Origin: Candidatus Falkowbacteria bacterium
Lineage (GTDB): Bacteria; Patescibacteriota; Patescibacteriia; UBA11705; JABHMO01
NCBI GenBank assembly: GCA_018693855.1
Contig: JABHMO010000043.1
Location: 4,450-68,449, forward strand
Direction: 5' to 3'
DNA: 64,000 nucleotides
Under the pieces are notes generated by a model that saw only the letters and a list, made by a program, of their open reading frames with translations, did no database searches and was not told the DNA's origin. Positions within the stretch are counted from its first letter, which is position 1. Each line of letters begins with the position of its first letter. Positions 3,234-57,831 of this stretch are shown in pieces. A program made the position numbers and the translations under genes.

Positions 3234-3320
3234 GAGTGAAGTGAATTGGAGTAAATCGAGGTAAATCGAAGTGAATCGGAGTAAATCGAGGTGAATCGAA
3301 GTAAAATGCAGTAAATCAAT
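3234..3320. repeat. Tandem decamer array (TCGRRGTRAA x ~8), family R10, locus 1
   Basis: gtgaa ttggagtaaa tcgaggtaaa tcgaagtgaa tcggagtaaa tcgaggtgaa tcgaagtaaa read directly. The same decamer array recurs at 20452-20518, 27771-27840, 52461-52548 and 60126-60186, always in the same + strand orientation. Confidence 0.8.
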
Positions 3321-7722: not shown

Positions 7723-7954
7723 GGTATTTTCTCCTTGGTTAGACGTCACACAAAAATCAAGATTTTGCCCCGCCATGGCGGGGCTGACAGAATTGTCAAA
7801 GTCCTATGTAGAACATTATAGATTAGCTTATTTTAAGGAAATTGTCAAGGGGAAATCACGAAACGCGGATCGCAGAACTCAGATCGTAAAACTCAAATTG
7901 ACAATTAAAACGGCCAGCAATAAAAAACAGCTAAATTTAGACAATTATTTAAAA

Positions 7955-9553: not shown

Positions 9554-9583
9554 TCACGTATCACTTAACACGTAGCACGTAAC
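9554..9583. repeat. Heptad tandem array (CACGTAR), family R7
   Basis: cacgtatcacttaacacgtagcacgtaac. The same ACGTARC heptads recur at 13443-13468, 19832-19866, 30655-30690 (inverted), 41466-41497, 43403-43440 and 58055-58088, usually just upstream of a -35 element. Confidence 0.7.
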
Positions 9584-9713
9584 AGAACACAAAAATCATT
9601 AATTTAAGCTAAATTTAGACAAAACTTTATAAAATTTATTTAAAATGAAGAGCCCCGAACGATGTTGTTCGGAGCTCGACTGTTGAGGTTGAGAGTTAAA
9701 TCGTAATGACGAC

Positions 9714-15984: not shown

Positions 15985-16260
15985 ATAGTTTATTCTTAAT
16001 GTTTATACTTGCATTATATTAGTACTGAATTTAAATGATATATGTATTACTCCATTTCGCACTCTCGTGCGAGTTACTTTTTTCCGTAAAAAAGTAACCA
16101 CCTGCCTACGCTATTACATAAGCTTCGGCAAGGCAGGAAAACAGCTGGGGCGCCACAATTCGCGTGCGTTGTTTTTTTTCGATCTACTAAAACGGCGAAT
16201 GTTCTGCCCCAGACCCCGCCGTACTTTTTATTTCCCCTATTGAAAAAAACAGAACTAAAA

Positions 16261-19669: not shown

Positions 19670-20061
19670 AAGTTATGAGATTAAATGATGTATACATAGA
19701 TAAGATGAACCAATCTAAATAAAAACCATAGATCCCTCCAGCAAGGTCGGGATGACAAATTTTTATTAAATATTGATACTTTATCTAAGTTTATTATACA
19801 ATATTTTTATAATTTTAACAAAAAGCTTATCACGTAACACGTAGCACATAGCACGTAACATAAATCGCATTCAAACTATACTTAAAATAAAAAACAGCCG
19901 ATTTCTCGGCTGGATTTTTTAACTACTAGTTAGTTAGCTCTAAAGAGACAAAAGAAAGGAGGTGTTGAAAGAACATATATCTCAAAGAGCCAACTAATTA
20001 GTAGTTAGATTTATACATTTAGGTTGTCCTGCGAATCCGGTGGGATTCACAGGTGGTTGTT

Positions 20062-20451: not shown

Positions 20452-20518
20452 GACGGAGTGAATCGAAGTGAATACAAGTAAATATAAGTGAATATATGCG
20501 AGTCTAAGTAAATCTAAG
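20452..20518. repeat. Decamer tandem array, family R10, locus 2
   Basis: gagtgaa tcgaagtgaa tacaagtaaa tataagtgaa ... tctaagtaaa. Confidence 0.7.
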
Positions 20519-20996: not shown

Positions 20997-21116
20997 CGTT
21001 TGACATTTAACATTTGACTCAATTTTGAAATTTGTTATTTGCCTGCCTTGCCGAAGCTGAGTAGCGTAGGCAGGTTTGTAATTTGTTATTTGGAATTTGG
21101 TGCTTACGTCAGTCCC

Positions 21117-22164: not shown

Positions 22165-22388
22165 TCAGTTAACCGGTTAACCTCGCTTCGCCAGCCCGCA
22201 AAGCTACAGCGTTGCTGGAGGGCTGTTAATCAAGTTAACACAGTTAATCATTGACTTAAATTAAAGAATCCTTTATACTATCGAAATCATTACAATAACA
22301 TGCCAAGGCGGATGAAAGTTATAACTCTGGCTCTCTGTACTAGTCTCTAAAAAGCCTCCTATAGCCTCATATAGCCTCCTAAGTTCAT

Positions 22389-22583: not shown

Positions 22584-22676
22584 TCAAAAAGTTGAATAGT
22601 TGATTTGTTTATTAGTTGATTATTACTACAGTCCAAACTATCAACCAATCAACCTATAAACCAATAAACCACTCCT

Positions 22677-24745: not shown

Positions 24746-25990
24746 CTATTCGTGTCTTAATGCCTCTATAGGATCTAAACCTGCGGCTTTCTTCGCTGGA
24801 TACAGACCAAAAACAAGACCAACGACAATCGACATCAGAGTTGCTAAGAACATACCGAAATATGATACGCTAAAATCCCAGTTAAAACCTTGACTGTTTG
24901 CACCGACTGAAATTAAAAATGATAAAATAATTCCTATAATAATTCCAATAATACCACCGATCAATGTGATAATTACTGATTCCCAAAGGAACTGCCACAT
25001 GATAACAGAACTTTTTGCACCGACGGCTTTACGTAAACCGATTTCGTAAGTTCGTTCTGTTACAGAGACGTACATGATATTCATTATACCAACGCCTCCA
25101 ACCACAAGTGATATCGAACCAAGTAAAATTAATAGGATTTGTATTCCATTAACAACAACATCCATCATCTCAGCTGCCTGCTCCATGGAAACAACGGCAA
25201 AATCATCTTTATCAGGATCATCAATCTCGTGAGCATCACGCATAATCCATTCCATATCTGCTACTGTTTGATCACCAAGCTCAGTGTCAATCATCTGAGC
25301 AAAAATAAACGAAATATAATCAATACCTAAAATTCTTTTTTGCAGCGTTTGCACAGGCACAATCGCCATATTATCCCAATCAAACCCAAACGTCGCTCCC
25401 CTTTCCTCAGTAACTCCAATTACCTTAAATCTTTCTTTCCCTAATTTCACAAAATTATCAACTGGATCAGTTTGACCAAATAGTTTATCAGCCAACTTCG
25501 GTCCTAAGACAGCAACTTTTGTTAATGAGTTGTCCTCCTCTTTTGTAAAGAAACGTCCACTAACAACTTCTGTTTGATCAATATTGATAAAGTCAGCACT
25601 TACGCCAAACAAGAATGCTTTTGTTAATTCACTACTATAGCTGATCGCCTCCTGTCCCATTACTCCACCATAATATTGAGAGATATTTGGATGTTTCCCA
25701 ATTTCATCAGCATCATCAAGAGTCATAGTTGTAATAGCTGCCCCACCAATCATACTAAAAGCATTTTCAACTGAAGCCTGAGAAGTGGAAGGCGTTTTCA
25801 CCTCAACTTCAATAGTCCCTGATCCAAAAGACTCAATCTCAGCAATTATAAAATTTTCAATTGCATTCCCTGCTGACAACACAACAATAACGGAAGTTAT
25901 CCCAATTACAACACCAAGCAGGGATAGCACTGTTCTGCTTCTATTTTTACGTAAGTTTTGTTTTGCGATGTTAAAGCTTAGGAAACGCAT
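24746..25990 (-). CDS. ABC transporter permease, FtsX/MacB family (paralog 2)
   Basis: N-terminal TM, a large periplasmic domain, and the C-terminal 3-TM FtsX domain ...[28 protein letters not shown].... ATG at 25990; the tracked start at 25996 is a GTG. Confidence 0.8.
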   Translation of the reverse strand: [414 protein letters not shown]

Positions 25991-25999
25991 AATCACAGT

Positions 26000-26085
26000 T
26001 AATCGGTTAATCAGTTGACCCGTTAACCAGTTAATCCGTTAACCAGTTAACCCGTCAACCAGTTAATCCTAACTATTACAACATT
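26000..26085. repeat. Tandem 16-mer repeats (CCGTTAACCAGTTAAT x ~4), GTTAACC family
   Basis: ccgttaaccagttaatccgttaaccagttaacccgtcaaccagttaatcc. An inverted partner lies at 26478-26530 on the other side of the four-helix-bundle gene. A related copy lies at 22165-22255. Confidence 0.75.
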
Positions 26086-26089
26086 AATT

Positions 26090-26461
26090 TCATTTACTAT
26101 CCGCTTTAGATCTTAAATATTTAATCTGCTCGTTAATTTTTATAATCAAACTCTCATATCTGTTTATTAAATCATTAGACTTATCTTTCGAAAGATAATC
26201 CCTTCCTGACGCAACAGACAAATGGCTTTGTACTTCTTCTGCTTCTCCCCTTGAAATATACAACACTCTTATTTTATCCAAATAATAATATCTGCCATGA
26301 CTCTCAGCTATATTCGCGATAACAGAGTTCGCAGCTTTTATCATTTGTTGAACTAATGCATACTTTTCAATATCGGGAAATTTACTTGTGACTTCATAAA
26401 TCTCCATCAATAAATCATATCCTATTTGCCAAATTTTCATTTTATTAAAACCTTCAGCCAT
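26090..26461 (-). CDS. Four-helix-bundle protein (TIGR02436 / 23S rRNA intervening-sequence protein / Avd-like family)
   Basis: MAEGFNKMKIWQIGYDLLMEIYEVTSKFPDIEKYALVQQMIKAANSVIANIAESHGRYYYLDKIRVLYISRGEAEEVQSHLSVA. This matches the hallmark pattern of the family (KxxE..F.........Q..RA..S...NIAEG.GR.......F..IA.GS..E). Confidence 0.75.
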   Translation of the reverse strand: MAEGFNKMKIWQIGYDLLMEIYEVTSKFPDIEKYALVQQMIKAANSVIANIAESHGRYYYLDKIRVLYISRGEAEEVQSHLSVASGRDYLSKDKSNDLINRYESLIIKINEQIKYLRSKADSK

Positions 26462-26530
26462 ATTATTAAATAATTACTTTTTTGTATTTAAAAGATTAAC
26501 TGATTAACCGGTTAACTGGTTAACCGCGAC

Positions 26531-27768
26531 TCATTCGTACCTAAGCGCTACAATCGGATCAAACTTCGAAGCTTTACTTGCTGGATAAATTCCAAATATT
26601 AAACCAATAGCAACACTTACACCACATGAAAGTAATAATGAGGTTGGAGTGATGACAAAATCCCAATCATAACCAAGATATCTGACAATGGTTGCGGTTA
26701 AAAAGGAAAAAGCAACTCCGATTAAAATACCTATTACAGCAGCAATAAGCGTTATTGAAACAGATTCTACGAGGAACTGCCAGATAATGTCTTTTTTCTT
26801 GGCTCCAAGTGCTTTTTTCAAACCAACTTCTTGAATCCGTTCAGTTACTGCAGCCAACATGATATTCATAATCCCAATACCTCCAACAACTAAAGAGATA
26901 GCAGCGATAGCTACTAAAAAGTACTTTAACGAACTTGTTACGGCTGTTAGACTTCCTAAAGCCGCTGCTGTGTTTGCCACTTCAAAATCATCTTTACTCG
27001 GATTATCAATATTATGCCGATCACGCAGTATTTCCTGAGCCTGAACCACAACATAATCCATATTATCTTCGTCATCTACTTCCATTCGAATAAATCCAAC
27101 ATGATTAATACCAACTATTTTTTTCTGAACTGTCGTAACTGGGACAAAAATCATCTTGTCAGTATTTTGAAATGCTACAACACCTTTTGCTTCTAAAACA
27201 CCGACCACTCTATAGTTTCTTTTTTTAATTTTAATAGTTTGCCCAATCGCATCTTGATCATTAAAAAGTTCTTGTTTTATTTCACTTCCCAAAACAACAA
27301 CGTTACTTAACAAAGTTTCATCTTCGTCTAAAATAAACCGTCCAGAAGCTACATCACTATCAGAAATTTCTAAATAACCTTCACTAACTCCTTGAATATT
27401 CGCGGTTACTTTTTGATTTTGATAAGTCACTGGTTCCATTGTCGTAACGTATGATGAAATCGCCACGACTTCAGGAATTTGCGTTTCTAGAGCTTTTTTA
27501 TCATCATTAGTCAAAGTAGTAATAACAACACCAAAAACAGCTGCTGGCGGCCCGTCACCATCACTATTGCCAGGTAAAACGCCTACTAAATTTGAACCAA
27601 CACTTCGAATCTGATTCACAATAAGACTTTCTGCACCTGCACCAACTGACAAAACAATTATCACAGACGAAATACCAATAATAATTCCCAGCATAGTCAA
27701 AAAAGAGCGCATCTTACTGGCTCGTAGATTTTTAATTGACATTTTAATGCTGTTTATGATTATTCTCA
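26531..27768 (-). CDS. ABC transporter permease, FtsX/MacB family (paralog 1)
   Basis: MSIKNLRASKMRSFLTMLGIIIGISSVI...[28 protein letters not shown]. The start is taken at ATG 27768 or 27743; the longer tracked ORF runs into the decamer repeat array. Confidence 0.8.
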
Positions 27769-27770
27769 TA

Positions 27771-27840
27771 TCGAAGTAAATAGAGGTGAATAGGAGTGAA
27801 TCGAAGTAAATCGAAGTGAATCGGAGTAAATCGAAGTTAA
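27771..27840. repeat. Decamer tandem array, family R10, locus 3
   Basis: tcgaagtaaa tagaggtgaa taggagtgaa tcgaagtaaa tcgaagtgaa tcggagtaaa tcgaagttaa. Confidence 0.75.
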
Positions 27841-27954
27841 TTAAAAGAGGGATAAGAGTAAGCAATCGTTTCCTGTTTAGAAATTAACGTTCCGCGTTCT
27901 GCCGTTCGGCCTCGAGCTCACGGCCGAGAGGCGATCCGCGATCCGCATTTTTCT

Positions 27955-28680
27955 CTACTTCTTAATACCTGCTCCTTCATCAGTATAAATTCGATTAGTA
28001 ATTTTCTCATCTGAAACAACGACACCATCCTGTAATTTAATCATACGTTCAGCGTGCTGAGCTGTATCTTCTTCGTGAGTAACTAAAATGATGGTAATTC
28101 CCTGCTTATCTAATTTTTGTAAAGTTGTCATAATAATTCCGGCTGTCTTACTGTCCAAATTACCAGTCGGTTCATCAGCGAAAATAATCGAAGGTTTATT
28201 CACAAGAGCTCGAGCAATAGCAACTCTTTGTTTTTCACCACCAGAAAGCTGATTTGAAAGATAGTCTCGTCTTTCAGACAACCCAACTAGAGCAATAGCG
28301 TCTTCAATCCTTTTCTTATGTTCATTAACAGGGACAGTACTGTACATCAGCGGTAATTGAACATTTTCAAAAACAGTTGTTCGAGGTAAAAGATTAAATG
28401 ATTGAAAAATAAAACCAACTTGAGAATTTCTAATCTCAGCCATCTCATCATCTTCCAAGTCTTTAATATTTTTATTTTTGAAATGATACTCACCACAACT
28501 AGGTTTATCCAAAAAACCTAAAACATTCATGAGGGTTGATTTCCCACTACCTGATCTTCCCATAATCGCAACAAACTCACCTTGTTCAATATTAAAAGAG
28601 ATGCTGTGAAGCACCTTTGTTACGACACCGTCGTTGTTGAATTCCTTACACAAGTCTTTTAGTTCAATTAACTTAGGCAT
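27955..28680 (-). CDS. ABC transporter ATP-binding protein (MacB/LolD-type)
   Basis: Walker [10 protein letters not shown], signature [15 protein letters not shown], and Walker [13 protein letters not shown]. Confidence 0.9.
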
Positions 28681-28749
28681 AAAGTTGGTTTATTGGTTTA
28701 TTGGTTGATAGTTCTGACGATATTAATAATCAACTAATCAACCTATCAA

Positions 28750-30636
28750 CTATTTCAACTTCTTCATATAAGTAACGATCTCTTGTCCTTCTTCTAGACC
28801 GGAAATAATCTCGATTAAACCATTGTCTGCTCGAAGTCCAGTTTCAACTGAGATTTCTTTGTGAGTATTTCCATCCAAAATTCGGACAACTTTACCTGAA
28901 CCATTATTTTCAATAACAGCTCGTCTTGGTACAAAGAGAGTTCCGGTTCTTGATTCAGTGAAAATAAGAGTATTTGCTGTCATACCCGGTTTAACTTGCT
29001 TTTCTGTACTTGGATCAAAAACTATTTTAACACTGTAATAAATAACGTCTTGAATAACTGTTTCACCTGGATCAATAGAACTAACCGTTCCCATGAATAG
29101 TTCGTCGTCACCAAAAGCATCCAAAGTTATTTCAACTTCGTCATCTTGCTCAATTTTCGCAATATCAGATTCTGAGATATCAACTTCTATTTCAAATCCG
29201 TTTAGATTTTCCATTTTCACAACGTGAGGTTTCGCTGATGAAGCAGTGACTTGTTCACCAATTTCATATTCAATAGAAGTAACCGTACCATCAATTGGTG
29301 CTTTTATAACTGCGTCCTCAAACTTCTTTTGAGCCAACTCGTAAGCAGCTTGCATCTGGGCTACCCTTGCTTGATTTGGAGCAATATCAACATATCTAGG
29401 ATCAGCTGCCTTTAGGTCTAACTGAGACACAGCTAACTCCCAAGCAGATTTCGCAATCTCTATTTTATTTTCTTGACTTGTTAATTGAGAATCTTTTGTA
29501 GCAACAGCTAAATCATAGTTCGCCTTGCTGACATTGTAAGAATTTTCAGCAGAATTCAGAGCTGATTGATATGTATCTTGTTGTGTTTGTTTTGAAATCC
29601 GAGCACTTACTAAATTCTGATAAGCTGAACGCAAACTTGATAAGTCTGATGAGATAGTAACTTGTTCTGCTGAAATACTCGTTTTATAGCTATTAAGATC
29701 TGTACTGGTAAAATCAACCGAAGTAAGAGAGTATCGAAGCATTTCATAAACTGTTCTAAGTTCTGCAAACATGTTTTCCAATGTAACAGTTGCCACATTA
29801 ACAACAGAATCAAGTTCATCATCAGTACTAGAAATACTAATATTTTCAAATTCACTTTCCAACAGCTCTATGCTTCGTTCTGCAGCGCCTCTTAAAAGAA
29901 CTTCTTCATATACTGTAGTCATTTTTCGTTGACCAATGTACTTATCAAAATAAGTTTCTTCAATTACTTTATAAATTTCGTCTAATGAAACATGCATATC
30001 AGCAACAGAATCTTCAATAAGTATCAACAAGGTATCTTTGTAATTTTCAACTGTTTGATCCTGAGTATTACCTATATTACCTAAATCAACTTGTGAATCC
30101 TCGTAAGCTTTTTTCGATTTTGCTAGATTTTCTTCGTAAGTTACGATATCTTTTTCTAACTTAGTTTGCAGAGTTGTAAGTTCTTCAATTGCATTCTGAT
30201 AATCGATATATGCTTTATTCGCAGTAATTTGAGACACATTAATATCTTGACTGCTCGCTCCTGCCAACTGTCTATTCAAATCAGCTTGAGCTTGTCTTAA
30301 ATTAGCATCTGCCTGAGCTAATTGGAACTTCAACTCTCTATCATCAAGTCCTATAATCGGATCATCTTTAAGAACCTCCTGTCCAACAGCTGCGAAAAGA
30401 TCTTTTACAACACCTGTTGTCTGAAAAGACAATGAAACTTCTTCAGCTGATTGCACCTTCCCTGTCGCGTCAACTGTCTGTACTAAATCCCCTCTCGCAA
30501 CAGTTTCTGTTGTATATTCATACTCAGAGTCCGAACCTTTTACCAATACAAAAACTATAATAATAGCTATTACTATTAAAATAATTAACCACCAAAACTT
30601 TTTGAGGATTCTTCTCATAGCTTTTTTATGCGTCAT
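28750..30636 (-). CDS. HlyD/MacA-family periplasmic adaptor (membrane-fusion protein) with a long coiled-coil hairpin
   Basis: N-terminal TM KKFWWLIILIVIAIIIVFVL, a >250-aa alpha-helical coiled coil, and a C-terminal beta-barrel/lipoyl-like region (VKPGMTANTLIFTESRTGTLFVPRRAV). It is first in the operon with the ATPase and two permeases. Confidence 0.75.
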   Translation of the reverse strand: MTHKKAMRRILKKFWWLIILIVIAIIIVFVLVKGSDSEYEYTTETVARGDLVQTVDATGKVQSAEEVSLSFQTTGVVKDLFAAVGQEVLKDDPIIGLDDRELKFQLAQADANLRQAQADLNRQLAGASSQDINVSQITANKAYIDYQNAIEELTTLQTKLEKDIVTYEENLAKSKKAYEDSQVDLGNIGNTQDQTVENYKDTLLILIEDSVADMHVSLDEIYKVIEETYFDKYIGQRKMTTVYEEVLLRGAAERSIELLESEFENISISSTDDELDSVVNVATVTLENMFAELRTVYEMLRYSLTSVDFTSTDLNSYKTSISAEQVTISSDLSSLRSAYQNLVSARISKQTQQDTYQSALNSAENSYNVSKANYDLAVATKDSQLTSQENKIEIAKSAWELAVSQLDLKAADPRYVDIAPNQARVAQMQAAYELAQKKFEDAVIKAPIDGTVTSIEYEIGEQVTASSAKPHVVKMENLNGFEIEVDISESDIAKIEQDDEVEITLDAFGDDELFMGTVSSIDPGETVIQDVIYYSVKIVFDPSTEKQVKPGMTANTLIFTESRTGTLFVPRRAVIENNGSGKVVRILDGNTHKEISVETGLRADNGLIEIISGLEEGQEIVTYMKKLK

Positions 30637-30828
30637 TTAATCACAAATTTGATTTATGTTACGTGCTATGCGATACGTGTTACGTGAATATTATACCATT
30701 TTTTTAACCTTTATTAAACTTTTTATACACAAAAAGCCTCTAAGCTTTACAATCCTTTCAAATAGTGATACTATCCCCCTGATGACAAAAAACGTTCTAT
30801 TCATAAATTAAACTTTAACCTAAACAAT

Positions 30829-31188: not shown

Positions 31189-34100
31189 TTAATTATTTTG
31201 ATCAGTCTCTAAATTAGTATTATCCGAATCGTCAGTTGTCTCAATTTCACCTTCATCAATATCATTCTTTTTTTTCAACTTAACAGACTCGATATTATAG
31301 AAATCTTCATGAAGCTCGTCTAGATCAACGCCCTTAATATCTTCCTCATGTTTCTCAGCATGACGTCTTGTTTGTTTTTGTTTACCATCAACAAGTTTTT
31401 CTTCCTCACGACCTAGAGTTGATCTCATTGTGACTGGCGCCCCAATTTTCTGAGCCTGCTCAACATCTTCTCCTAATCCATGAGGATGCAAGAATAAGTC
31501 TTCAGCTAAATATCCTGACAGTTCATGTTCAAGGTTGATAACCGGCGTTCTCTTTGGATAGTAACCAACCTTCTCAGCAGTTACATAATACTCACTGTTA
31601 CCAACTAGGAAAGCATACCGACCATAACTGTCTGTAACTTGAGAATCTAGCAACTTATTATACTTTGTATCAAACACTCTTAACACAACAGTTCCAAGTC
31701 GATCCCTAGTCTTTGAATCACGAATTACACCGAAACTCTTTGGTTTAGAAGTAAAAGCCAATCGATTGAAGATAATATACATTCCGATATGAGCTAATGC
31801 AGTTCCTCCAACCCAAGCAGCTGGATTAATAACAAATGAAACAACTGCAACTATCGGTCCAGCCATAGTTAAGACTTGCTGTCCTTTTCGAATAAAATAC
31901 AGTTTAACAATCATTGAAGAAGTTTTCTTTTCTTGACTTGGATCAACAGCAATTGGAGAAACAAATGAAGTGTTTTCTTGAGTGATCTCGAAATCATCTC
32001 CGTAATAGACATCATGGAACTTACCGTCAACCTCAGCTTTTCTCAAAATATTACTTGGATACTTAAAGCCTTTCTTATCTACTGTAATGTAATATTTACC
32101 TGGTTTCAAAATAAACTGATAACGTCCCTGAGCGTCTGTTACTTTTGTTCGGACTAATCTATTACTATCTGATCGATAAACACGGACAACAGCTAAATCA
32201 ACTGATCGTTTAGTAACAGAGTTGTAAACAACGCCCCAAGTTTTCTTTCTTCTACGTGAGAATAGAACGATCAAAGGTTGAGTAAAGATAAAGTTTAAGT
32301 AAGAAAGCACAGTTGCACCAGATGCACTTGTAACACCTATTGTCGCTAATGAAGCAACTGATGTTGCAGTTACAACGGCCATTATCTCTTCTTTTACAAC
32401 GTGATTAAGTTTTTCAATCGCTGGATGATCTATTGTGGCTTTCTGCACGTCTTTCACTGTCTTAGAAACTCTTCTAACCACTTTCTTTACTTCTTTATTA
32501 TCAATACCTAGAACAGTAGTAACACCTGATGTTAATTCTTCAACTCCACATAATTTCTCATACGTTCGTTCATCATCAGTTCGTTCCCATTCTTCTTTTT
32601 CTCTTATTGATTGAATTAAGGCATTATTTGAACAAGAAGTTTCTGAATTATCAGCAATACTTTCACAATCGATATCATCTAAATCAGTTGTACCATCATT
32701 ATCATTATCAATATAGTCATTACACTGTGTTCGTTTATTGCCAATAACGACGTCCGCACTCTCAGTTTCATCAACATAATCATCACAATCAAGATCAGCT
32801 GGGTAGTCAACTAAGCCGTCACCGTCATTATCAATTCCATCACTACATTGAGGTAAGATTGATCCACCTTGAGTACTTTCGTTATCATCATCTAAACTGT
32901 CACAGTCAGGATCAGTTGGATAATCAACAAACCCATCACTATCATTATCAATACCATCATTACATTGGAAATATACAGCTAGAGAATAGTCTTCCTCATC
33001 GTAATCACTAGCACTTAGACAACCTGGATCTTCAGGGAAGTCAATTAAACCATCACCATCATTATCAAATAAATCACTACAAGCTAAGCCTGTCTCAAAT
33101 CCAGTAAACTCATCGTTATCTGAAGCACTAACACAACCAGGATCAAGTGGGTAATCAATGAGCCCATTTTCATCATTATCAATACCGTCATTACATTGAT
33201 AAATATATTCAGAGTCTACCTCACTAGTATCTGCGGCGTTTTGACAACCTGGATCATTTGGATAATCAATTAAACCGTCACCATCATTATCAATAAAATC
33301 ACTACAACTTGTTAAAATTGCGTTAAGTTCATCATTGTCTCCAGCAGCTACGCAACCTGGATCAAATGGATAATCAATATACTGATCACTATCATTATCA
33401 ATCACATCACTACACTGAGTTAATCCATGATCAGTCTCGTCATTATCAGAGCTGCTATCACAACCTGGATCGAAAAGATCTACTTTGCCATCATTATCAT
33501 TATCAACACCATCACTACATTGTGACAAGACAAGATTGTACTCATCATCATCAGCCGCTGAAGTACAACCAGGATCTGACATGTCAATTAGACCGTCAGC
33601 ATCATTGTCAACAGAATCACTACAAGCAGTTAACAACTCATTTTCTTCAGTATCGTCAGCTGCGTCCGAGCAACCTGGATCTGCTAAATCAACTAAGTTA
33701 TCATTATCATTATCAATACCATCACTACAATGTGTTGCTTTTATATTAAGCTCGTCATCATGTTGAGGACTGACACATCCAGGATCGAACGGGTAATCAA
33801 TCAAACCATCTAAATCATTATCGATTCCATCGCTACACTGTGTTACTGTGTCATTTACTTCATCATTGTCAGTTTCATCGCTGCAACCAGGATCTAGCAA
33901 GTCAATGAAACCATCGTTATCATTATCAATACCGTCATTACATTGGTAAATAATATAATCTGTTTCACTTGTATCACTAGAAGAAGAACAACCTGGATCA
34001 GCTGGGTAATCAATCAACCCATCATTATCATTATCAAGTTTATCTGAACAAGCAACTGCGTCAATTGGATCAACCTCACTATTATCTGAAGCATTTATAC

Positions 34101-37100
34101 AACCAGGGTCATTTGGATAATCAATTAAACTATCACTATCATTATCAAGACCATCACTACACTGTGTAATTAGTAAATTAGTCTCATCATTATCAGAACT
34201 ACTTGAACAACCTGGATCAAGTAAATCAATTAAGCCGTCACTGTCATTATCAAGTCCATCACTACACTGCGTTAATGACACATTAATTTCACTACTGTCA
34301 TCTAATCCGTCACAACCAGGATCATCAGGATAGTCGATTAATCCATCAGCATCATTATCAATCTTATCACTACAAGCAGGAACATCCTCACTGCCCATAA
34401 TTGTATTTGAAACAGTGTTTGAATATATTAGCGCCTCTGCTCCGTCATAATTAAGTGAAGCATAATTACTAATCACCTGTTTTGGAACACCTACAACAGT
34501 TGCGCTAAATGAAACCGTACCACTCTCACCTACTTCAACAGTTCCTAGATTAGCTGTGACAACAGAACTTGAGTAAGAACCGTAATCAGAGTCTAAAACG
34601 TCAGTTTGAGAGGCACCGTTAACATAAATACTACCTGAAGAATACTGCGTATACTGTGGAACAGTATCAGAAATTACTACGCCAGCTGCAGCTGCGTCAC
34701 CGTTGTTTGAATAAGAGATTGTATAAGTAATAAGATCACCAGGCTGAGCTTCGCCCGTAGCAGTTACATCATAACCAATGTTCAAATACAACAATCCGAA
34801 GAAAGCAATACCTGCAATCAACTTCAAGGCAACACCTCCCCAGAGACCTGCCATTAAAATTCTAAAAAATCTATAAAATTTCGAATGAGCTTTGAAACGA
34901 CTAGAATCCGTTGGCTCATCAATATTATTTATTAATTTATAAACATCTTCAGTTTTCCTTGATCGGAAATCAGTAAAGATCATCTTAGGAACGCATTTTA
35001 GTCGAATCATCAACTTTTCTGAACCATTGATTATAATGGAAAGTAAGACAACCAATAAAACCAAAGCTAATCCAATCAAGAACTTATCAGTCCAAGCAGA
35101 AGTTGATTTCACTGCGTTCATTAAATGAAAATTATCACCAGCGTGAGCTGTAGTTCCAAAACTTATAAAAGAAGTTTCAAACCCACCTGACGAAACATCA
35201 GCAGATTTCGTTAAGACAAAAGCTGGACTTCCTTCTGGTAGACTTTCCAAAGTAACATTATAAGCCTCTGACAAAAAGGTTGTTTCATCATTTTCATTTA
35301 TTGCTTTTAATTTAAATGTATACAACTGATCTAATACCAAACCGTCCATAACAATTCCACCATCACCCCAATCGCCGTATGATTGATAAACTGGTTCTTC
35401 TCCTAAGAAAGCATCAGCTTGCAACCAACCAACCTCACCTTCAGACAGTGACCAAATTGCGTATTTTGTATAAGCAGGATTTCCATTTGCATCAATTTGC
35501 AATGAGATTGAGTTATCAGACAGTTGTGAATGGCTAACAAATTCTGGAACAGCAGCATGAGTGTAAATAGACAGACCTTCAACTAATGTTGCTGGTGGTT
35601 CAGCTCGGCCAAGATCATTCACCGAATAAACTTCCCTTCTATAACCTGTATTAGGAAACAAATCCACCTCTTCATAAGCTTTGTCAGACAAAGAATCAAC
35701 AATTGGATCTTCAGCGCCCTCATCTTCAGACCAAAATTCAAATGTATCCGGATAATCATCATTATTGCTATAACTCCAAGTCCACAAAATAGAGCTTTCA
35801 CTTTGAGCCGTTCCGTATAAATTAGTTGGCGAATCCGGAGCTAACAAGGGACTTGTCCATCCCGCAGCACTGCTAATATAATTTAACGATAAATCATTCA
35901 AATAAGGACTCTTGTTAACATCCGTAGTACTCATCGTTGCTTTAGCTTTTATAACAGCTGTTCCAGCATTAAAAGTGTACTCGGCTCCAGGAGTAACCTC
36001 TTCCCAAGAAGAACCTCCTGCATTATATGTGAAACTATAAATGATATCATTATCACCAAAGATGTAATCTTCATCATCGTCAATTGCATTAAGATGCGTA
36101 GCTCCAGCTACGCCAGTAGTTCCAACAGTACAAGTAGTACCACTGTCCTCTGTATGAGCGTAAGTTTCATTATCACCAACAGCTAAAAATCTGGTGGTAC
36201 TTTCATTTCTAATCCAATTCAAATTCTCAGAAGTACTACAGCTACTAATTGTTGACCATGTTACACCATCACTTGATTTAATAATGATTCCATTATCCCC
36301 TACAGCGGTGAACCAATTATTACTCATCTCAATATGATTTAGATTCTCAGAAGTATTCGTTGTAATAGTTCCCCAAGTAGCACCAGAATCAGCAGATGCA
36401 ATCATTGTCCCACTGTCACCAACAAAGAAAATAGCACTTGCATCTTCGCTAACCCAAACACCATTAAGATTTTCAGCGGTAGCAGATGCTCCAAAATTAA
36501 CAACCGCACAAGTTGTCAAAGTAATATCACTACCTGCATCAGCTGGTTGTAAATTAATTTTCGCAGCCACTCCACCAGTACCAGATGTATAAATAATATG
36601 TTCATTAGTTGTCTCTATTCCCATTTCACTCAGATCAGTTGCACTTGTCACAACTCCATTACACAAGTCAGTTTTAGTCACTAATGTCTGATCAACTGCT
36701 TTGATATAACCATCACTACCAACACTAATAATGTAAGTTGTTCCACCAACATCTCCTGACCAATAATCCATTAAATTACTGGTTCCCTCATCAACTGCTA
36801 AGTCACCCCAAACGCCTCCCATTTTAATAGCATTATTACCACTGTCACCAAGTACAAAACTAACACCAGCACCAACTTCACCGCTATTCATATCAACACC
36901 TCTCGCAGTTGTATCTTCCTGACCAAATGTATATGAAGCATCAGCTGTATCTTGTACGTAATATGTAATAGTAGTATCTGTTGGAGTATAATCGCTTTTA
37001 TCTAAAGTAATAGTACTTAATTCCTCGGGATCAGTATAAACATCACTAGTAATAACATCATAATCAGTTGCAGCTGTATAAGTATGACGATGTTCAAACC

Positions 37101-40100
37101 TTCGACTCTCAGCAACTGATGGATAATTTGCATAAAAATCAAGATCACCATCACCATCATAGTCTCCCGTGATGATTGATTCTGATTTTGCCGCTACTCC
37201 AATTGTAGTATATGCAAAATTTAATTTCCCATGATTTCTGTACAGAATATCTGCTTCAGTTGATGCGTTTCCATTTGAAAAGAATATATCAAGATCACCA
37301 TCTAGGTCATCATCTGCTAAATGAATATCTCGTGTATCAGTACCATCTGAAAAAGATAAATGTTCGGTAAATGTACCTGTTCCGTTATTTGTGTAAATGT
37401 AATTACCTTTTGCTCCGCTAGCATTATCAGCCAAAACTGCGTCTAAATCACCATCTTGATCTAGATCTCCAAGTCGAATTACAAAAGAAGCAACTGCGAA
37501 AGTATCAACGCCTGTAAATGTACCTGAGCCGTTATTTGTAAAAACAGCGCCCTGAACAGCTCCATCAGTATATGGGAAAACTACATCAACATCACCATCT
37601 CCATCCACATCACCAACATCAAACTTACCAGTATTATACGTACTTGTTCCAAATGGATTAGTAACAGCGCTGAATGTTCCCGAACCATTATTGGTATACA
37701 GTTCATCTTTGTCACCAACATTAGCAACTAAAACATCTAAATCACCATCACCGTCAGTGTCAGCTAACTTCACGTCAATTGAATCATCAGTTCCAGCACC
37801 AAGCGCTTTACCTGTAAAAGTGTTACTTCCACTATTTAAATAAACAGTGTTAGCTGTACCGTATCCGACTTCAGCAACATCAAGAAGTCCATCATTATCA
37901 ACGTCAGCCACTTCCACTGCGTAAGCATTAACTGTACCAAACACAGCTGACTGAGTATATGAAAGTGCTCCATCATTTATCCAAAGTTCATTTTGAGCAC
38001 CATTATTATTAACATAAAGATCCATGTCTCCATCATTATCACTGTCAAAAACAGCGAGAACTGACTCCCCTGCTGTTAAATTTGAAGACGAATAACTGTT
38101 TGCAGTATTTGCATAATAATAGTTCTGTCCATTTGCACCAATAACAGCGTCAGAGTCCCCATCCTTATCAAAATCAGCTGACACAAAATCAGCACCATGA
38201 TACGTACCAAACACAGCTTCTTCTTCGTACTCTACTTGACCACGAACAGCGTACGTAAATGAGTATTTACCTGGATGTCGATAAACGTAATTAGCTGTTC
38301 CATTAGCTGAACCACAAAAAATATCTTCATAACCGTCGCCATCAATATCAGCTACTACCATTGAAGTATCTACACAAACATAGCCAGTATCAAGATCATT
38401 TAATTGAGTAAAAGAACCTGCACCGTTATTCATTAAAGCAGTTAACGAACCATCAGTTTCAGGTTTAAATATCAAATCTTTATCACCATCCAAATCAAAA
38501 TCTGTTACAACTGGGTCATCCATTGCTCCCATCGCTACAGTTGCTGCTGCTGAGAAAACACCAGAGCCATCATTTGTATAAGGTTTCAACGTTCTTGCTC
38601 CACCAGCCACCCAATCAACGTAAACCAAGTCATCATCTCCGTCATTATCAATATCAAACATCTCAAATCTATCATTTGAGTCAATACCTGTACCAAAAGT
38701 TGTTGCAGACAGTGCTAAAGTATTTGTCCCATCATGTATGAACATTTTTTCACCATTTGTAACATCTAGATAGCCATCATTATTAATATCAGCGCCTCTA
38801 ATACCATCCAGTGACGACATTGTTCCTAAACTTGCGCTAGCAGTAAAAGTACCAGTTCCATCATTAGTACATAAATATAGATCATTATAACCAGACGCAT
38901 AATCTAAATCACCATCATTATCAACGTCAAAAATAACTGCGTCATAACTTCCACAAGCAACGGCACTAGCTGAAAAAGTGGCTGAGCCATTATTTGAATG
39001 AAAAACTGCGCCAGTATCAGTCAATTCTAAAATATCAGGAATCTCGTCACCATTAGCATCCATGACGTACAATTTCTGTGTATTACTACTTCCAACAGTA
39101 GCAACTGCTGCTGCGTATGTATTTGTAGCAGGTAATTTAACAACTCTATTGATACCAAAGTTGCCCCCGAAATCACTAGCGTCTAAATCAATGTCTTCCA
39201 TTGATAAAAAATGTGTAATATATTCATAGACAGAGTCTGCTGCCACAGTAAAACTATAAATTCCGCTAACAGCTGACATCAAGCCATTCTCATCATAAGC
39301 TCTAGCGCGCCAGTAATAAATTTTTGATTCATCTAGATCAAATTCACTTGGCAATGTAAATGAACCAGTCGCTGCCGCTGCATAGCTTGAAGCTGACCAG
39401 CCGTAATCATCCTCTCGTTGATCAAAAACGAAAATATTATTTAATAGATCATCTGTCATGCCAATCTCAAGAACATACCAAAGTCGATCACTGTCAGCGT
39501 CAGAAGAACTCATTGTAAATGTTGGATTCACACTAACACCAGTCGCTGCATCAGCAGGCAGACTTAAAGTTGGAGCACCTGGTGCTGAGTTTGTATTATA
39601 AGCAATTGAAACACCAGTTATTGTTGGAGTAGCACTTCCGTCATCGCTTGTAATTGTGGCTCGCCAAAGAAGTTCATCTCCTTTTTCTACAAATGTATAC
39701 AAAGTACCAGATGTTGCAGTATCCCAAGACAAACCTTCATTCGTTGACATTGCATACGTTATCGTTCCACCAGTAGTAACATGAGTTCCTGTTAAAGTCG
39801 CGTTTAAGACAACGTTTCCTCCTGTATTTGCATCTGTTGCTAATGTAACAGTACCAGAAGAAGCATATAATCCAGAGTAATAAGCATAGTAAGGTGTTCC
39901 AGCAGGAAAAGAACCTGTTGTCATCAGGACATGTGGAACTGTTCCGTTTAGTTCTAAATCACCTTCTGTTGCATCGTTATTGGCTGAACCAACAGTTGCA
40001 ATACCTGCAGTACCATCAGCATCTTCCCATCGGCCATCACCACTATCCCATTGAGCATAATAACCGCCTTCAGCTGCTGCTTCTTCATTTGCAAAATAGA

Positions 40101-41364
40101 TATGTGCTTTATCAGCAGAATCAAATTCCAATCGAGAACTTGCAAAATCTGGTGATCCACCAACGCCTGCACCTAAATTTTCTGTTCCAGCTGTTCCGTC
40201 CATCTGAGCATATTTAGAACCATCCCATCTTGTTAAATTTACACTTTCATACAATGTATCACCTGCGTCTTCTTCCCACATTATATACGGATTATCTGAC
40301 AATAAAACTAATCGTTCATTTTGAGTATTCGCAACAGTAGAGATTGAATCATAACCCGCAGTACCATCCATCTTCACCCAAGCTGATCCACTCCACCTTG
40401 AAACAAATAAATTATTAGCGCCTCCATCATTACCTATAACAACTGGGTATGTAGAAGAATTAATTTCAATATCTTCATACATTGCTGCAGCAAAAACAGT
40501 CTCATCTGCGTCAGCACCAGACATATCAACCCACGCTGAACCATTCCATCGTCTAAACTCTGTAGCGCCACCAGTTTCAGTCCAAATAACATACGGTCTA
40601 TTGCTAGCATCTAATTCTAAACCAATCGTACCTGACAAGATTCCCAATCGAACAGAGTCATAACCAGCGGTTCCATCCATTTTCACCCAAGCTGAGCCAC
40701 TCCATCTAGTAAAATAGGCGCCCCAAACACTTGCATTTGAGAAAGCTAGATTCAAATAATTTGATCCATCTAAATACGCATAATCAGCAGGAGAAGAAAC
40801 ACCACTAAAACTTAACTGATCAGTAACATTAGTACTTGATCCAAGATTGCCCCAAGCTGAACCATTCCAATATTTAACATGAACATCCGCACCATCCCAC
40901 CAGACTAGATGAATATTATTACTACCATCAATTAAAAGTTGGACTTGCGAAGCACTTGTAGAAGAAACAACTGTTTCAACTCCGGCCGTTGAGCTATCAG
41001 CCTGTGTCCAAGCAGTACCGTTCCAACGAATCAGATACAGGTCAGATGTAGAATTATCAATAGCCGCTATAACTGGTCGATTATTGCTGTCTAATTCCAT
41101 ATCAACGTATCGCCAATTCGTACCGGCATCAACTTCCCCAGGACCAGTGGATCCATCCGCATCTGCCCAGACAATAGTGTCAAGTTTAGCCGCTCCGCCA
41201 GTATACACAGTGCCTGAATGCGTCAGACTACTAAAATCTTCAGTATAAACATTGTCTCCGGCGAGCACGCCTGAATAATTTAATAAGGCTAGAGTTCCGC
41301 CAAATACAAAAAGTAGCAGAACTGAAAAATATAAAATTCTACGAAATGATTCGTTTTTCAACAT
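31189..41364 (-). CDS. Giant (~3391 aa) multidomain cell-surface protein
   Basis: N-terminal signal anchor. BNR/Ycf48-like beta-propeller repeats (SxDxGxTW). FG-GAP/VCBS-type repeats (FDxDNDGDLD, many copies). An Fn3-like segment. A DUF11/CARDB-like domain (GDLITYTISYSNNGDAAAAGV). ~25 copies of a ~36-aa CSDGxDNDxDGLIDYPxDPGC calcium-binding-type module. Two carboxypeptidase-regulatory-like (TDAQGRYQF / TDSYGRYAF) domains separated by TM segments. An acidic C-terminal tail. The likely start is ATG 41364; the tracked ORF starts at a TTG at 41376. Confidence 0.8.
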   Translation of the reverse strand: MLKNESFRRILYFSVLLLFVFGGTLALLNYSGVLAGDNVYTEDFSSLTHSGTVYTGGAAKLDTIVWADADGSTGPGEVDAGTNWRYVDMELDSNNRPVIAAIDNSTSDLYLIRWNGTAWTQADSSTAGVETVVSSTSASQVQLLIDGSNNIHLVWWDGADVHVKYWNGSAWGNLGSSTNVTDQLSFSGVSSPADYAYLDGSNYLNLAFSNASVWGAYFTRWSGSAWVKMDGTAGYDSVRLGILSGTIGLELDASNRPYVIWTETGGATEFRRWNGSAWVDMSGADADETVFAAAMYEDIEINSSTYPVVIGNDGGANNLFVSRWSGSAWVKMDGTAGYDSISTVANTQNERLVLLSDNPYIMWEEDAGDTLYESVNLTRWDGSKYAQMDGTAGTENLGAGVGGSPDFASSRLEFDSADKAHIYFANEEAAAEGGYYAQWDSGDGRWEDADGTAGIATVGSANNDATEGDLELNGTVPHVLMTTGSFPAGTPYYAYYSGLYASSGTVTLATDANTGGNVVLNATLTGTHVTTGGTITYAMSTNEGLSWDTATSGTLYTFVEKGDELLWRATITSDDGSATPTITGVSIAYNTNSAPGAPTLSLPADAATGVSVNPTFTMSSSDADSDRLWYVLEIGMTDDLLNNIFVFDQREDDYGWSASSYAAAATGSFTLPSEFDLDESKIYYWRARAYDENGLMSAVSGIYSFTVAADSVYEYITHFLSMEDIDLDASDFGGNFGINRVVKLPATNTYAAAVATVGSSNTQKLYVMDANGDEIPDILELTDTGAVFHSNNGSATFSASAVACGSYDAVIFDVDNDGDLDYASGYNDLYLCTNDGTGTFTASASLGTMSSLDGIRGADINNDGYLDVTNGEKMFIHDGTNTLALSATTFGTGIDSNDRFEMFDIDNDGDDDLVYVDWVAGGARTLKPYTNDGSGVFSAAATVAMGAMDDPVVTDFDLDGDKDLIFKPETDGSLTALMNNGAGSFTQLNDLDTGYVCVDTSMVVADIDGDGYEDIFCGSANGTANYVYRHPGKYSFTYAVRGQVEYEEEAVFGTYHGADFVSADFDKDGDSDAVIGANGQNYYYANTANSYSSSNLTAGESVLAVFDSDNDGDMDLYVNNNGAQNELWINDGALSYTQSAVFGTVNAYAVEVADVDNDGLLDVAEVGYGTANTVYLNSGSNTFTGKALGAGTDDSIDVKLADTDGDGDLDVLVANVGDKDELYTNNGSGTFSAVTNPFGTSTYNTGKFDVGDVDGDGDVDVVFPYTDGAVQGAVFTNNGSGTFTGVDTFAVASFVIRLGDLDQDGDLDAVLADNASGAKGNYIYTNNGTGTFTEHLSFSDGTDTRDIHLADDDLDGDLDIFFSNGNASTEADILYRNHGKLNFAYTTIGVAAKSESIITGDYDGDGDLDFYANYPSVAESRRFEHRHTYTAATDYDVITSDVYTDPEELSTITLDKSDYTPTDTTITYYVQDTADASYTFGQEDTTARGVDMNSGEVGAGVSFVLGDSGNNAIKMGGVWGDLAVDEGTSNLMDYWSGDVGGTTYIISVGSDGYIKAVDQTLVTKTDLCNGVVTSATDLSEMGIETTNEHIIYTSGTGGVAAKINLQPADAGSDITLTTCAVVNFGASATAENLNGVWVSEDASAIFFVGDSGTMIASADSGATWGTITTNTSENLNHIEMSNNWFTAVGDNGIIIKSSDGVTWSTISSCSTSENLNWIRNESTTRFLAVGDNETYAHTEDSGTTCTVGTTGVAGATHLNAIDDDEDYIFGDNDIIYSFTYNAGGSSWEEVTPGAEYTFNAGTAVIKAKATMSTTDVNKSPYLNDLSLNYISSAAGWTSPLLAPDSPTNLYGTAQSESSILWTWSYSNNDDYPDTFEFWSEDEGAEDPIVDSLSDKAYEEVDLFPNTGYRREVYSVNDLGRAEPPATLVEGLSIYTHAAVPEFVSHSQLSDNSISLQIDANGNPAYTKYAIWSLSEGEVGWLQADAFLGEEPVYQSYGDWGDGGIVMDGLVLDQLYTFKLKAINENDETTFLSEAYNVTLESLPEGSPAFVLTKSADVSSGGFETSFISFGTTAHAGDNFHLMNAVKSTSAWTDKFLIGLALVLLVVLLSIIINGSEKLMIRLKCVPKMIFTDFRSRKTEDVYKLINNIDEPTDSSRFKAHSKFYRFFRILMAGLWGGVALKLIAGIAFFGLLYLNIGYDVTATGEAQPGDLITYTISYSNNGDAAAAGVVISDTVPQYTQYSSGSIYVNGASQTDVLDSDYGSYSSSVVTANLGTVEVGESGTVSFSATVVGVPKQVISNYASLNYDGAEALIYSNTVSNTIMGSEDVPACSDKIDNDADGLIDYPDDPGCDGLDDSSEINVSLTQCSDGLDNDSDGLIDLLDPGCSSSSDNDETNLLITQCSDGLDNDSDSLIDYPNDPGCINASDNSEVDPIDAVACSDKLDNDNDGLIDYPADPGCSSSSDTSETDYIIYQCNDGIDNDNDGFIDLLDPGCSDETDNDEVNDTVTQCSDGIDNDLDGLIDYPFDPGCVSPQHDDELNIKATHCSDGIDNDNDNLVDLADPGCSDAADDTEENELLTACSDSVDNDADGLIDMSDPGCTSAADDDEYNLVLSQCSDGVDNDNDGKVDLFDPGCDSSSDNDETDHGLTQCSDVIDNDSDQYIDYPFDPGCVAAGDNDELNAILTSCSDFIDNDGDGLIDYPNDPGCQNAADTSEVDSEYIYQCNDGIDNDENGLIDYPLDPGCVSASDNDEFTGFETGLACSDLFDNDGDGLIDFPEDPGCLSASDYDEEDYSLAVYFQCNDGIDNDSDGFVDYPTDPDCDSLDDDNESTQGGSILPQCSDGIDNDGDGLVDYPADLDCDDYVDETESADVVIGNKRTQCNDYIDNDNDGTTDLDDIDCESIADNSETSCSNNALIQSIREKEEWERTDDERTYEKLCGVEELTSGVTTVLGIDNKEVKKVVRRVSKTVKDVQKATIDHPAIEKLNHVVKEEIMAVVTATSVASLATIGVTSASGATVLSYLNFIFTQPLIVLFSRRRKKTWGVVYNSVTKRSVDLAVVRVYRSDSNRLVRTKVTDAQGRYQFILKPGKYYITVDKKGFKYPSNILRKAEVDGKFHDVYYGDDFEITQENTSFVSPIAVDPSQEKKTSSMIVKLYFIRKGQQVLTMAGPIVAVVSFVINPAAWVGGTALAHIGMYIIFNRLAFTSKPKSFGVIRDSKTRDRLGTVVLRVFDTKYNKLLDSQVTDSYGRYAFLVGNSEYYVTAEKVGYYPKRTPVINLEHELSGYLAEDLFLHPHGLGEDVEQAQKIGAPVTMRSTLGREEEKLVDGKQKQTRRHAEKHEEDIKGVDLDELHEDFYNIESVKLKKKNDIDEGEIETTDDSDNTNLETDQNN

Positions 41365-41519
41365 AAGAAAATTCAATACTTTTTGACAAAGTATTTTTGT
41401 TAAATTTATGCTTTAATTATACCATAAAAGGGACTCTGCGTCCCTAGTAGTTATCAACATTTTTAGCACGTAACACGTAGCACGTATCACATAGCAGAAA
41501 TTGTAAAACAAATATTAGA

Positions 41520-43316: not shown

Positions 43317-43591
43317 ATAATTAAAAAATATCTGCTTAGTTTCTAGCTATTCACATTATAACAATTTTTTAATATTGATTGAATGGGTTTATCCACATTT
43401 TCACGTAGCACGTAACACGTAACGCATAACATGTAACAATAATCGCAAAAATCACATTATTCACACCCAAACGTCCCTAATTACGAGTTGCTAATTACAA
43501 TTTACTATGCCCCTTGCCAAATATTTAATATCATGCTATCATTGTGGACATATTATAAACAATAAATTTATTCGAAATTTACTTGATCTGT

Positions 43592-57822: not shown

Positions 57823-57831
57823 AATTACTAA

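Follow-up and report, generated by a model that had tools for sequence, protein, structure and literature searches.

Between the two permease genes of an exporter operon in a 64,000-nucleotide stretch of a Candidatus Falkowbacteria contig (JABHMO010000043.1; the whole stretch is hereafter called the window), a four-helix-bundle (4HB) protein gene of the '23S rRNA intervening sequence (IVS) protein' family is bracketed by inverted arrays of short tandem repeats. Comparison with related genomes shows that the 4HB gene and its inverted arrays are a unit that was inserted once into the junction of the two permease genes (permA and permB), in the ancestor of a small clade of Patescibacteria. The wrapped architecture is a property of the family and not of the window locus. 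This cassette is probably, though far from certainly, an IVS-type stem-loop element that resides in a protein-coding mRNA operon instead of an rRNA gene. A sequence-only reading of the window had described inverted GTTAACC-type arrays around a gene of the TIGR02436 family between two permeases, and both parts of that description were borne out, except that the arrays span 25996-26069 and 26494-26526 and not 26000-26085 and 26478-26530.

The encoded 4HB protein scored above the curated thresholds of both PF05635 (E=2.5e-29, 102.1 bits; cutoff 33.8) and TIGR02436 (E=1.9e-27, 95.6 bits; cutoff 24). Its closest solved structure was PDB 2gsc (XCC0516), a pentameric four-helix bundle (profile match E=1.1e-19), and the conserved alignment columns S45, N49, E52, G55 and R56 fit the S-x3-N-x2-E part of the family motif, which is quoted as GxxRxxxSxxxNxxE (PMC3936711). 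Comparison of the window gene with an 85%-identical orthologue gave dN=0.07 and dS=0.80 (dN/dS ~0.09), and the protein is under purifying selection. A crude sigma-70 scan found no promoter for the gene itself on the minus strand of the permA-4HB interval (26461-26530). There was no second 4HB gene in the 64-kb window.

The two arms of the cassette are inverted rather than direct, with stretches of 31 nt and 39 nt that are 90% and 85% complementary, respectively, versus 66% as direct copies. A weaker direct match is also present because GTTAAC is itself palindromic. By the limits that Tandem Repeats Finder assigned, the TGA stop codon of permA lies 4 nt upstream of the 5' arm, and the 3' arm, an array of period 8, 16 or 32 (score 79-120), ends 5 nt ahead of the permB ATG. 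With at most one mismatch allowed, GTTAAYCNGTTAAY occurred 16 times in the window, where 0.45 occurrences were expected, and only at the two arms and at 22168. The arrays were base-for-base identical in nine other independent assemblies of the same species and therefore are not an assembly artefact; across the ten assemblies no copy-number polymorphism of the arrays was seen.

Structural statements throughout this work are predictions. The minus-strand RNA of positions 25985-26540 folded at -140.6 kcal/mol (z=-5.6) into a stem of some 40 bp, whose loop of about 425 nt holds the whole 4HB open reading frame (ORF). The long stem between the flanking arrays that the sequence-only reading had envisaged thus does form in the predicted RNA. 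In the minimum-free-energy fold, the 5' arm pairs with the distal part of the 3' arm, and the permA UGA and permB AUG are predicted to lie opposite each other in an internal loop at the stem base. A search of the window with Rfam at gathering thresholds found only a tmRNA and a tRNA-Asp, and no known RNA family at the cassette.

To follow the history of the junction, we scanned for permB in one genome per species (GTDB) and obtained seven related loci. In six of these, orthologues of permA and permB stood side by side without a 4HB gene, and the junction ranged from an overlap of a few bases to a 53-nt spacer; the seventh had one permease only. Because relatives carry adjacent permeases and no 4HB gene between them, the gene is an insertion, and the two-permease arrangement is ancestral, with a permA-permB junction that was originally tight. 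The 4HB gene occupies the same junction in lineages with 85% and 75% identical 4HB proteins, and these identities parallel those of permB in the same two lineages (86% and 72%). The shared junction and the purifying selection show that this is an old insertion, retained because of, or at least with, a functional protein. Among species representatives, the nearest ones that share the operon bear the labels Patescibacteria group bacterium, Candidatus Paceibacter and Candidatus Uhrbacteria. In the closest relative without the 4HB gene (L010), the empty permA-permB spacer (5940-5991) holds a short array of its own, (ACATGATTT)n, with no inverted partner.

These loci also bear on what the sequence-only reading had made of the gene's origin. 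Its proposal that the 4HB gene arrived as a small repeat-flanked cassette held up, given the empty junction in six of seven relatives and the same arms in other contexts. It had counted two permeases with neither a 4HB gene nor repeats as evidence against a cassette; two permeases without the gene were indeed found in the same six relatives, but they argue for insertion, and the objection was framed backwards. Its second objection, that the gene may be a conserved operon member, applies within the close clade (the 85% and 75% lineages, with purifying selection). The further suggestion that arrival of the cassette duplicated the permease did not survive. A single permease, as that suggestion would have it, occurred in one relative of the seven, whereas the other six had both permeases adjacent, each with its own orthologue. 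The permeases are an old paralogous pair, and duplication by the cassette is ruled out.

The arms accompany the gene to other sites. 4HB genes 72% and 70% identical to that of the window were found after a LytR_cpsA_psr gene and between der and pth, and in three unrelated contexts GTTAATC arrays stood upstream and GATTAAC arrays downstream of the 4HB gene. Arrays in those related loci measured from ~30 to ~700 nt, with a higher-order unit of 8, 10, 16 or 24 nt; the arms are unstable in length though their core motif is kept. For pairs of loci in different contexts, the 6-mer similarity of the arms rose with 4HB identity (rho 0.29), the mean cosine being 0.04 below 45% identity, 0.08 at 45-55%, 0.10 at 55-65%, 0.33 at 65-80% and 0.63 above 80%. 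Where two 4HB paralogues occurred in one locus, each had its own arm motif. In the species with the 75%-identical orthologue, the infC-rpmI and rpmI-rplT spacers carried wholly different array motifs from those of the window, whereas the GTTAAYC core of the 4HB arms persisted, although the divergence is one that saturates synonymous sites (pS 0.85). The contrast shows that the arms of the cassette are constrained or co-inherited, unlike generic arrays.

Individual loci differed further in their repeats. In related species (assemblies L017, 5320-6000, and L018, 5450-6000), the 5' arm has grown to ~550-700 nt and is made up of 24-nt units and ~110-nt blocks; its length differs between the two despite an identical encoded 4HB protein. 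A 46-nt block is present in three copies in L020 (1-143) versus one in L021 (2240-2282).

To assess how general the arrangement is, 80 metagenomic loci were fetched by the 4HB family profile, and in the 71 with both flanks the 200-nt upstream flank was aligned to the reverse complement of the 200-nt downstream flank. The loci are not phylogenetically independent, so that the p-values given here overstate significance, and a simple rule was used to place the start codons of the genes alongside. The median score of inverted flanks was 31, compared to 17 in direct orientation and 16.4 in shuffles, and 53 of the 71 loci exceeded z=4. Among 198 control ORFs of the same loci the median score was 18 and only 4.5% reached 30 or more, and three of the high-scoring control ORFs were further 4HB genes. 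Folds of each gene with 120 nt of either flank gave a median of 40 base pairs between the flanks in 64 distinct loci, versus 7 for small control ORFs. The repeat unit varied by locus and both arms changed together; examples are (GATTAAGC)n, (AGAGATAR)n, (AGAGATTR)n, (AATTAGTK)n, (AAGATTRA)n and (GTGAACG)n, and AGAGATTA is an example of an arm motif non-cognate to the GTTAAYC arms of the window. Strict periodicity, taken as a 32-nt stretch at least 80% self-identical, was found in 16 of 66 5' flanks with 8 as the commonest period, although this test is insensitive and the arrays are degenerate.

The elements were also strongly polar. Neighbouring genes were co-oriented with the 4HB gene in 58 of 58 cases upstream and 53 of 55 downstream (111/113 in total, against a 78% baseline of adjacent ORF pairs; p=6e-10). 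On the coding strand, purines were more frequent in the 5' arm than in its 3' counterpart in 44 of 47 loci (median 0.66 vs 0.39, p=6e-9), and the near-palindromic arm motif of the window is one of the three exceptions. The median distance from the 5' arm to the ATG was 26 nt and from the 4HB stop codon to the 3' arm 6 nt, and short spacers (medians 69 and 42 nt) separated the gene from its neighbours. An enclosing stem was folded by 43 loci, and in 38 of them its outermost pair was no more than 15 nt from the upstream stop codon and likewise from the downstream ATG.

The same design reached beyond the Patescibacteria. Eight 4HB genes on cyanobacterial plasmids, 30-35% identical to that of the window, were examined, and six showed it; the arms were heptamer or octamer arrays such as (AGGTGAC)n ... 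(GTCACCT)n or (GCAGGGGA)n ... (TCCCCTGC)n. In most relatives, the common design is a purine-rich short-repeat arm, ~26 nt, a 4HB ORF of ~120 codons, ~6 nt and a complementary arm. One cyanobacterial 4HB gene, on plasmid pANA02 of Anabaena sp. 90 (L107, 1128-1905), lies between cas6 and cas4 of a type I-D locus, with (AGGTGAC)n upstream and (GTCACCT)n downstream.

If the cassette is an IVS-type element, it would be transcribed as part of the host operon by read-through, and its arms would pair in the RNA to give a stem of 30-130 bp that loops out the 4HB ORF. The base of this stem would bring the upstream stop codon and the downstream start codon together, which would make the insertion tolerable. 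By one route, RNase III may cleave the stem in the manner known from rRNA intervening sequences, so that a small 4HB mRNA would be freed and the host mRNA left in two halves. By another, terminating ribosomes may be handed across the stem base to the downstream gene, which would keep translational coupling. The 4HB protein could be a nucleic-acid-binding factor like its relative Avd. Its own arms may be what it acts on, given that arm motifs and protein clades vary in step.

Several observations weigh against the IVS-type interpretation. No significant arms were present in 18 of the 71 loci, and the closeness of the stem to the flanking codons arises in part because the spacers are short. The excess of G-U wobble pairs on the sense strand was a trend only (59 vs 40, p=0.07), and antisense folds paired nearly as well as sense folds (median 35.5 vs 40 pairs); with such near-equal pairing, a stem acting in RNA is not told apart from one acting in DNA. 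The palindromic GTTAAC lets each arm fold on itself, and a local hairpin of that kind was flagged in the window. The stem is a predicted one and its cleavage a conjecture, and no RNase III gene (rnc) was present among the scanned ORFs of the window. Retention of the GTTAAYC core where synonymous sites are saturated hints at sequence-specific recognition, since pairing alone does not need it.

This last point leads to the main rival, in which the cassette is a mobile element at the DNA level and the RNA stem a by-product; its arrays would be terminal inverted repeats that iterate the binding site of a recombinase or transposase acting in trans or of the pentameric 4HB protein. We consider this unlikely, though it deserves to be taken seriously. 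It would account for the inheritance of arms and gene together across unrelated contexts, with a separate motif for each paralogue, and for a core heptamer that was kept while generic spacers turned over, which suggests sequence-specific recognition. The non-significant G-U strand test also fits, as does an ORF-less hairpin present in two ~84% identical copies in two operons, which resembles a miniature inverted-repeat transposable element (MITE). In addition, older proposals favour it in which IVSs are transposon remnants or their ORF serves mobility (PMC4990558). However, no transposase or recombinase was found beside the cassette in the window or in the 80 metagenomic loci examined, and no target-site duplication was identified, the available empty sites being too diverged (permB at most 60% identical) to define the ends. 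Within the species, ten assemblies share identical arrays, and across species the insertion is stably inherited. Neither the co-orientation of neighbours nor the purine/pyrimidine polarity of the arms is required of a DNA transposon, although selection for expression of the ORF could produce co-orientation in such an element as well.

Two further explanations fared worse. Nearly all spacers of the window hold 7-10-nt arrays, many of them ORF-less hairpins, and even the empty permA-permB spacer of L010 has a short array, so one might suppose that the 4HB gene landed by chance among generic intergenic repeat hairpins, perhaps transcript stabilisers or terminators. Such a coincidence is very improbable and is largely refuted: inverted flanks are strongly enriched at 4HB genes compared to 198 neighbouring ORFs, the arm motif tracks the 4HB clade instead of the site, arrays in orthologous generic spacers vary from species to species where 4HB arms are kept, and the wrapped design recurs in cyanobacteria. 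That the 4HB protein is an Avd working with a reverse transcriptase (RT) encoded elsewhere, as a remnant or accessory of a diversity-generating retroelement (DGR), we regard as scarcely credible. The protein does match bAvd (PF22296, E=4.7e-6) and the Avd model NF033474 for DGRs (E=7e-5), if weakly, and PF05635 is the Pfam family most often found near DGR RTs (PMC10053308). Yet both Avd models score far below their cutoffs (27.5 bits against 40 for PF22296, 23.1 bits against 80 for NF033474), the scanned ORFs of the window include no RT domain, the window contains no pair resembling a template repeat and variable repeat (TR/VR), and no RT is among the listed neighbours of related loci. A DGR/Avd identity is therefore rejected. 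The sequence-only reading was right that the window has neither RT nor TR/VR; of the Avd homology that it invoked, a distant relationship stands and the link to DGRs does not.

The closest known counterpart of the cassette is the rRNA IVS of the Leptospira, Coxiella, Brucella and Xanthomonas type. The 428-nt Coxiella IVS forms a 28-bp stem from its terminal inverted repeats, carries a PF05635-family ORF in the loop and is cut by RNase III (PMC4990558). The ORF family ('S23p') is shared, as is a sense ORF without a strong ribosome-binding site of its own, placed in the loop of a terminal-inverted-repeat stem inside a host transcript, and the loop of the window cassette is close in length to the Coxiella IVS. 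A stem closed by terminal inverted repeats, one mark of an IVS, is predicted both in the window and in the family. Another mark, insertion in rRNA, is absent: the host is an mRNA operon junction between permeases and not helix 25 or 45 of 23S rRNA, and the window holds no rRNA gene (Rfam found only the tmRNA and one tRNA). The arms differ as well, being degenerate 8-nt tandem arrays (33 and 74 nt; up to ~700 nt in relatives) instead of a unique 28-bp inverted repeat. The window ORF is under purifying selection whereas the Coxiella ORF is reported to be decaying, and excision by RNase III, known for Coxiella, would apply to the window cassette by analogy. The 4HB protein is an ordinary PF05635/TIGR02436 member, and the element, though it works like an rRNA IVS, does not count as one.

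The arrays themselves recall the short tandemly repeated repetitive (STRR) elements of filamentous cyanobacteria, which are ~7-nt tandem repeats in spacers that often form hairpins within operons, e.g., hupS-hupL, and for which a role in transcript stability or translational coupling has been proposed, the latter, by bringing stop and start codons together, for the hairpins between hupS and hupL (PMC2670836). The 4HB loci that we examined in cyanobacteria are flanked by exactly such heptamer or octamer arrays. STRRs, however, are described as repeats only, and we found no published tie to 4HB genes; they are heptanucleotides of heterocyst-forming cyanobacteria, whereas the window belongs to a bacterium of the Candidate Phyla Radiation (CPR), its commonest period is 8, and its arrays form an inverted pair around a gene. 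The window arrays work like STRR hairpins but are not STRRs by definition.

Avd binds nucleic acid and RT. It shares with the 4HB protein a homologous four-helix bundle and a pentameric barrel, but the window lacks an RT, a template repeat and a variable repeat, Avd-specific models stay below their cutoffs, and Avd genes are not described as wrapped in inverted arrays. The structure 2gsc has been reported as homologous to bAvd 4DWL, and 4HB proteins as resembling Avd (PMC10053308). Repetitive extragenic palindromes (REP), bacterial interspersed mosaic elements (BIME) and MITE-like hairpins are likewise small, dispersed palindromic elements of operon spacers, of which the window has a two-copy example (22584-22676 and 28681-28749). 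In contrast to these, the window-type elements have no RAYT or transposase nearby, their arms consist internally of tandem repeats, the loop of some copies holds a conserved protein gene, and their orientation is tied to transcription.

The host operon (Table 1) encodes a MacAB-type tripartite ABC exporter, with an adaptor, an ABC ATPase and MacB_PCD/FtsX permeases. Gene calls and profiles confirmed the order that the sequence-only reading had given, namely adaptor, ATPase, permease 1, 4HB gene and permease 2, on the minus strand. The 414-residue length of permB agrees with the gene call in the source assemblies. The promoter candidate upstream of the adaptor is a pattern match only, as promoter-like sites are no commoner in the region than in shuffles. 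The window is part of a Patescibacteria (CPR) genome and has a G+C content of 38.8%.

Table 1. Features of the 4HB cassette, its host operon and related arrays (positions in the window; arms and genes described in gene orientation).
Feature	Position	Strand	Evidence or remark
4HB protein gene, 123 aa, in loop of predicted stem	26090..26461	-	PF05635 / TIGR02436
AT-rich 32-nt leader, 5' arm to 4HB ATG	26462..26493	-	no Shine-Dalgarno motif, no promoter match on strand
5' arm, ~4 units NGTTAAYC (GGTTAACC AGTTAACC GGTTAATC AGTTAATC)	26494..26526	-	Tandem Repeats Finder, period 8/16
3' arm, ~9 units GRTTAACN (reverse complement of 5' arm units)	25996..26069	-	Tandem Repeats Finder
Permease B (permB; MacB_PCD + FtsX, 414 aa, ATG at 25990)	24746..25990	-	PF12704 E=2.7e-34, PF02687 E=1.7e-20
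Permease A (permA; MacB_PCD + FtsX)	26531..27769	-	PF12704 E=1.5e-40, PF02687 E=1.5e-22
ABC transporter ATPase, MacB/LolD-like	27955..28680	-	PF00005 E=2.4e-36
HlyD/MacA-type periplasmic adaptor, first gene of operon	28750..30636	-	TIGR01730 E=1.4e-43, PF16576, PF13437
Best sigma-70-like promoter candidate for operon, TTAATA-16-TG-TATAAT	30690..30717	-	consensus scan, 10/12 matches, extended -10
Direct array (GAAGTAAATC)n, ATPase-permA spacer	27770..27841	.	dispersed family; other copies start near 3217, 20444, 52442, 60104
ORF-less hairpin, 8-nt repeats (AGTTGATT ... AATCAACC), adaptor-ATPase spacer	28681..28749 (also given as 28678..28760)	-	copy of 22584-22676
ORF-less hairpin (AGTTGATT ... 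AATCAACC), rpmI-rplT spacer	22584..22676	+	copy of 28681-28749
Solo GTTAAYC arrays around GC-rich stem-loop, infC-rpmI spacer	22165..22260	+	only other site of arm motif in 64 kb

Hardly a spacer in the window is without degenerate 7-10-nt tandem arrays. They group into a few dispersed families, with CACGTAA present at six sites and GAAGTAAATC at five, besides TTTGACA, GGCTAAACGA and AGTTGATT. Neither these arrays nor the family-wide wrapped architecture had been noticed in the sequence-only reading. Many of the arrays are self-contained hairpins without an ORF. The two copies of the hairpin listed in Table 1 are ~84% identical over ~75 nt including the loop and have the same orientation relative to transcription; such similarity, loop included, in two operons shows that ORF-less hairpin elements are copied as units. 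The solo arrays in the infC-rpmI spacer are possibly an ORF-less relative or derivative of the 4HB cassette.

Other array sites include 3238-3317, 9555-9584, 19831-19860, 20457-20518, 27770-27841 and 30657-30686, and further ones lie at 41464-41496, 43402-43438, 52463-52546, 58056-58085 and 60127-60186. The arrays of the window resemble cyanobacterial STRR repeats, yet occur in a CPR genome. GC-rich hairpins of the form CCTGCC...GGCAGG or GCCAGCCC...GGAGGGC were seen within or beside AT-rich arrays (16095-16135, 21040-21075, 52540-52585, 60180-60215 and 22183-22223); they could be terminators that lack a T-run, or a small repeated element of their own.

Elsewhere in the window, gyrB (55184-57193) has an in-frame TAG at 57191-57193 (GCT GAT TAG ATA TTT), followed by 28 in-frame codons of a normal GyrB C-terminus. 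A 101-nt copy of the gyrB 3' end, 89% identical and without the stop codon (..TDEIFDILMG..), lies 774 nt downstream (region 57179-58053), and a 125-residue ORF without a Pfam match (57445-57822) separates the two copies. The arrangement resembles an insertion into the 3' end of gyrB with a duplicated end, unless the stop codon is read through or is an assembly variant. Two giant repeat-rich ORFs encode a protein of 3395 aa (31189-41376; FG-GAP/CLIPPER in the source annotation) and one of 1463 aa with nine MopE-type Cu-binding motifs (3385-7776), and the long direct repeats of the window are mostly the internal ones of these two ORFs (105-117 nt and 174 nt).

A published link between non-rRNA 4HB genes and flanking tandem or inverted arrays was not found, nor were published short-repeat arrays of this kind in CPR genomes, although subscription journals lay mostly outside the search and a prior description of either is possible. 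With that reservation, what is new here is the wrapping of non-rRNA 4HB copies in inverted short repeats, and the occurrence of such arrays in CPR genomes, for both of which we found no earlier description. To our knowledge, the '23S rRNA IVS protein' family has been without a known function for about 30 years, and the cyanobacterial STRR repeats for even longer. The 4HB locus of the window and its ~80 relatives tie the two together.

A broader interpretation may be offered tentatively, and we hold it to be doubtful as a whole. PF05635 4HB genes could be the protein-coding core of widespread, previously unrecognised stem-loop elements that invade operons and rRNA genes, with each protein recognising the repeats of its own arms, as RNA or DNA, and thereby promoting maintenance, processing or spread of the element. 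ORF-less short-repeat hairpins, both the STRRs of cyanobacteria and the arrays of the window's CPR genome, would then be non-autonomous derivatives and the 23S rRNA IVS a special case.

More generally, the 4HB gene is usually delivered inside a short-tandem-repeat stem, in sense to the host transcript, where it fills the spacer between a stop and a start codon. 4HB genes have been reported between cas genes (PMC3936711), the 23S_rRNA_IVP family scores as CRISPR-associated (PMC10910872), and 4HB genes occur in insertions of CPR 16S and 23S rRNA (PMC11270868). Insertion within operons, along with the accompanying repeat arrays, may explain the genes found between cas genes and the 'CRISPR-associated' scores. 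Testable ideas follow from the architecture, namely that RNase III processes the stem or that ribosomes are handed over at its base, and that the 4HB protein binds its own arms. For the organism itself, the locus indicates that a streamlined CPR genome tolerates a 530-nt insertion between two genes for transporter subunits.

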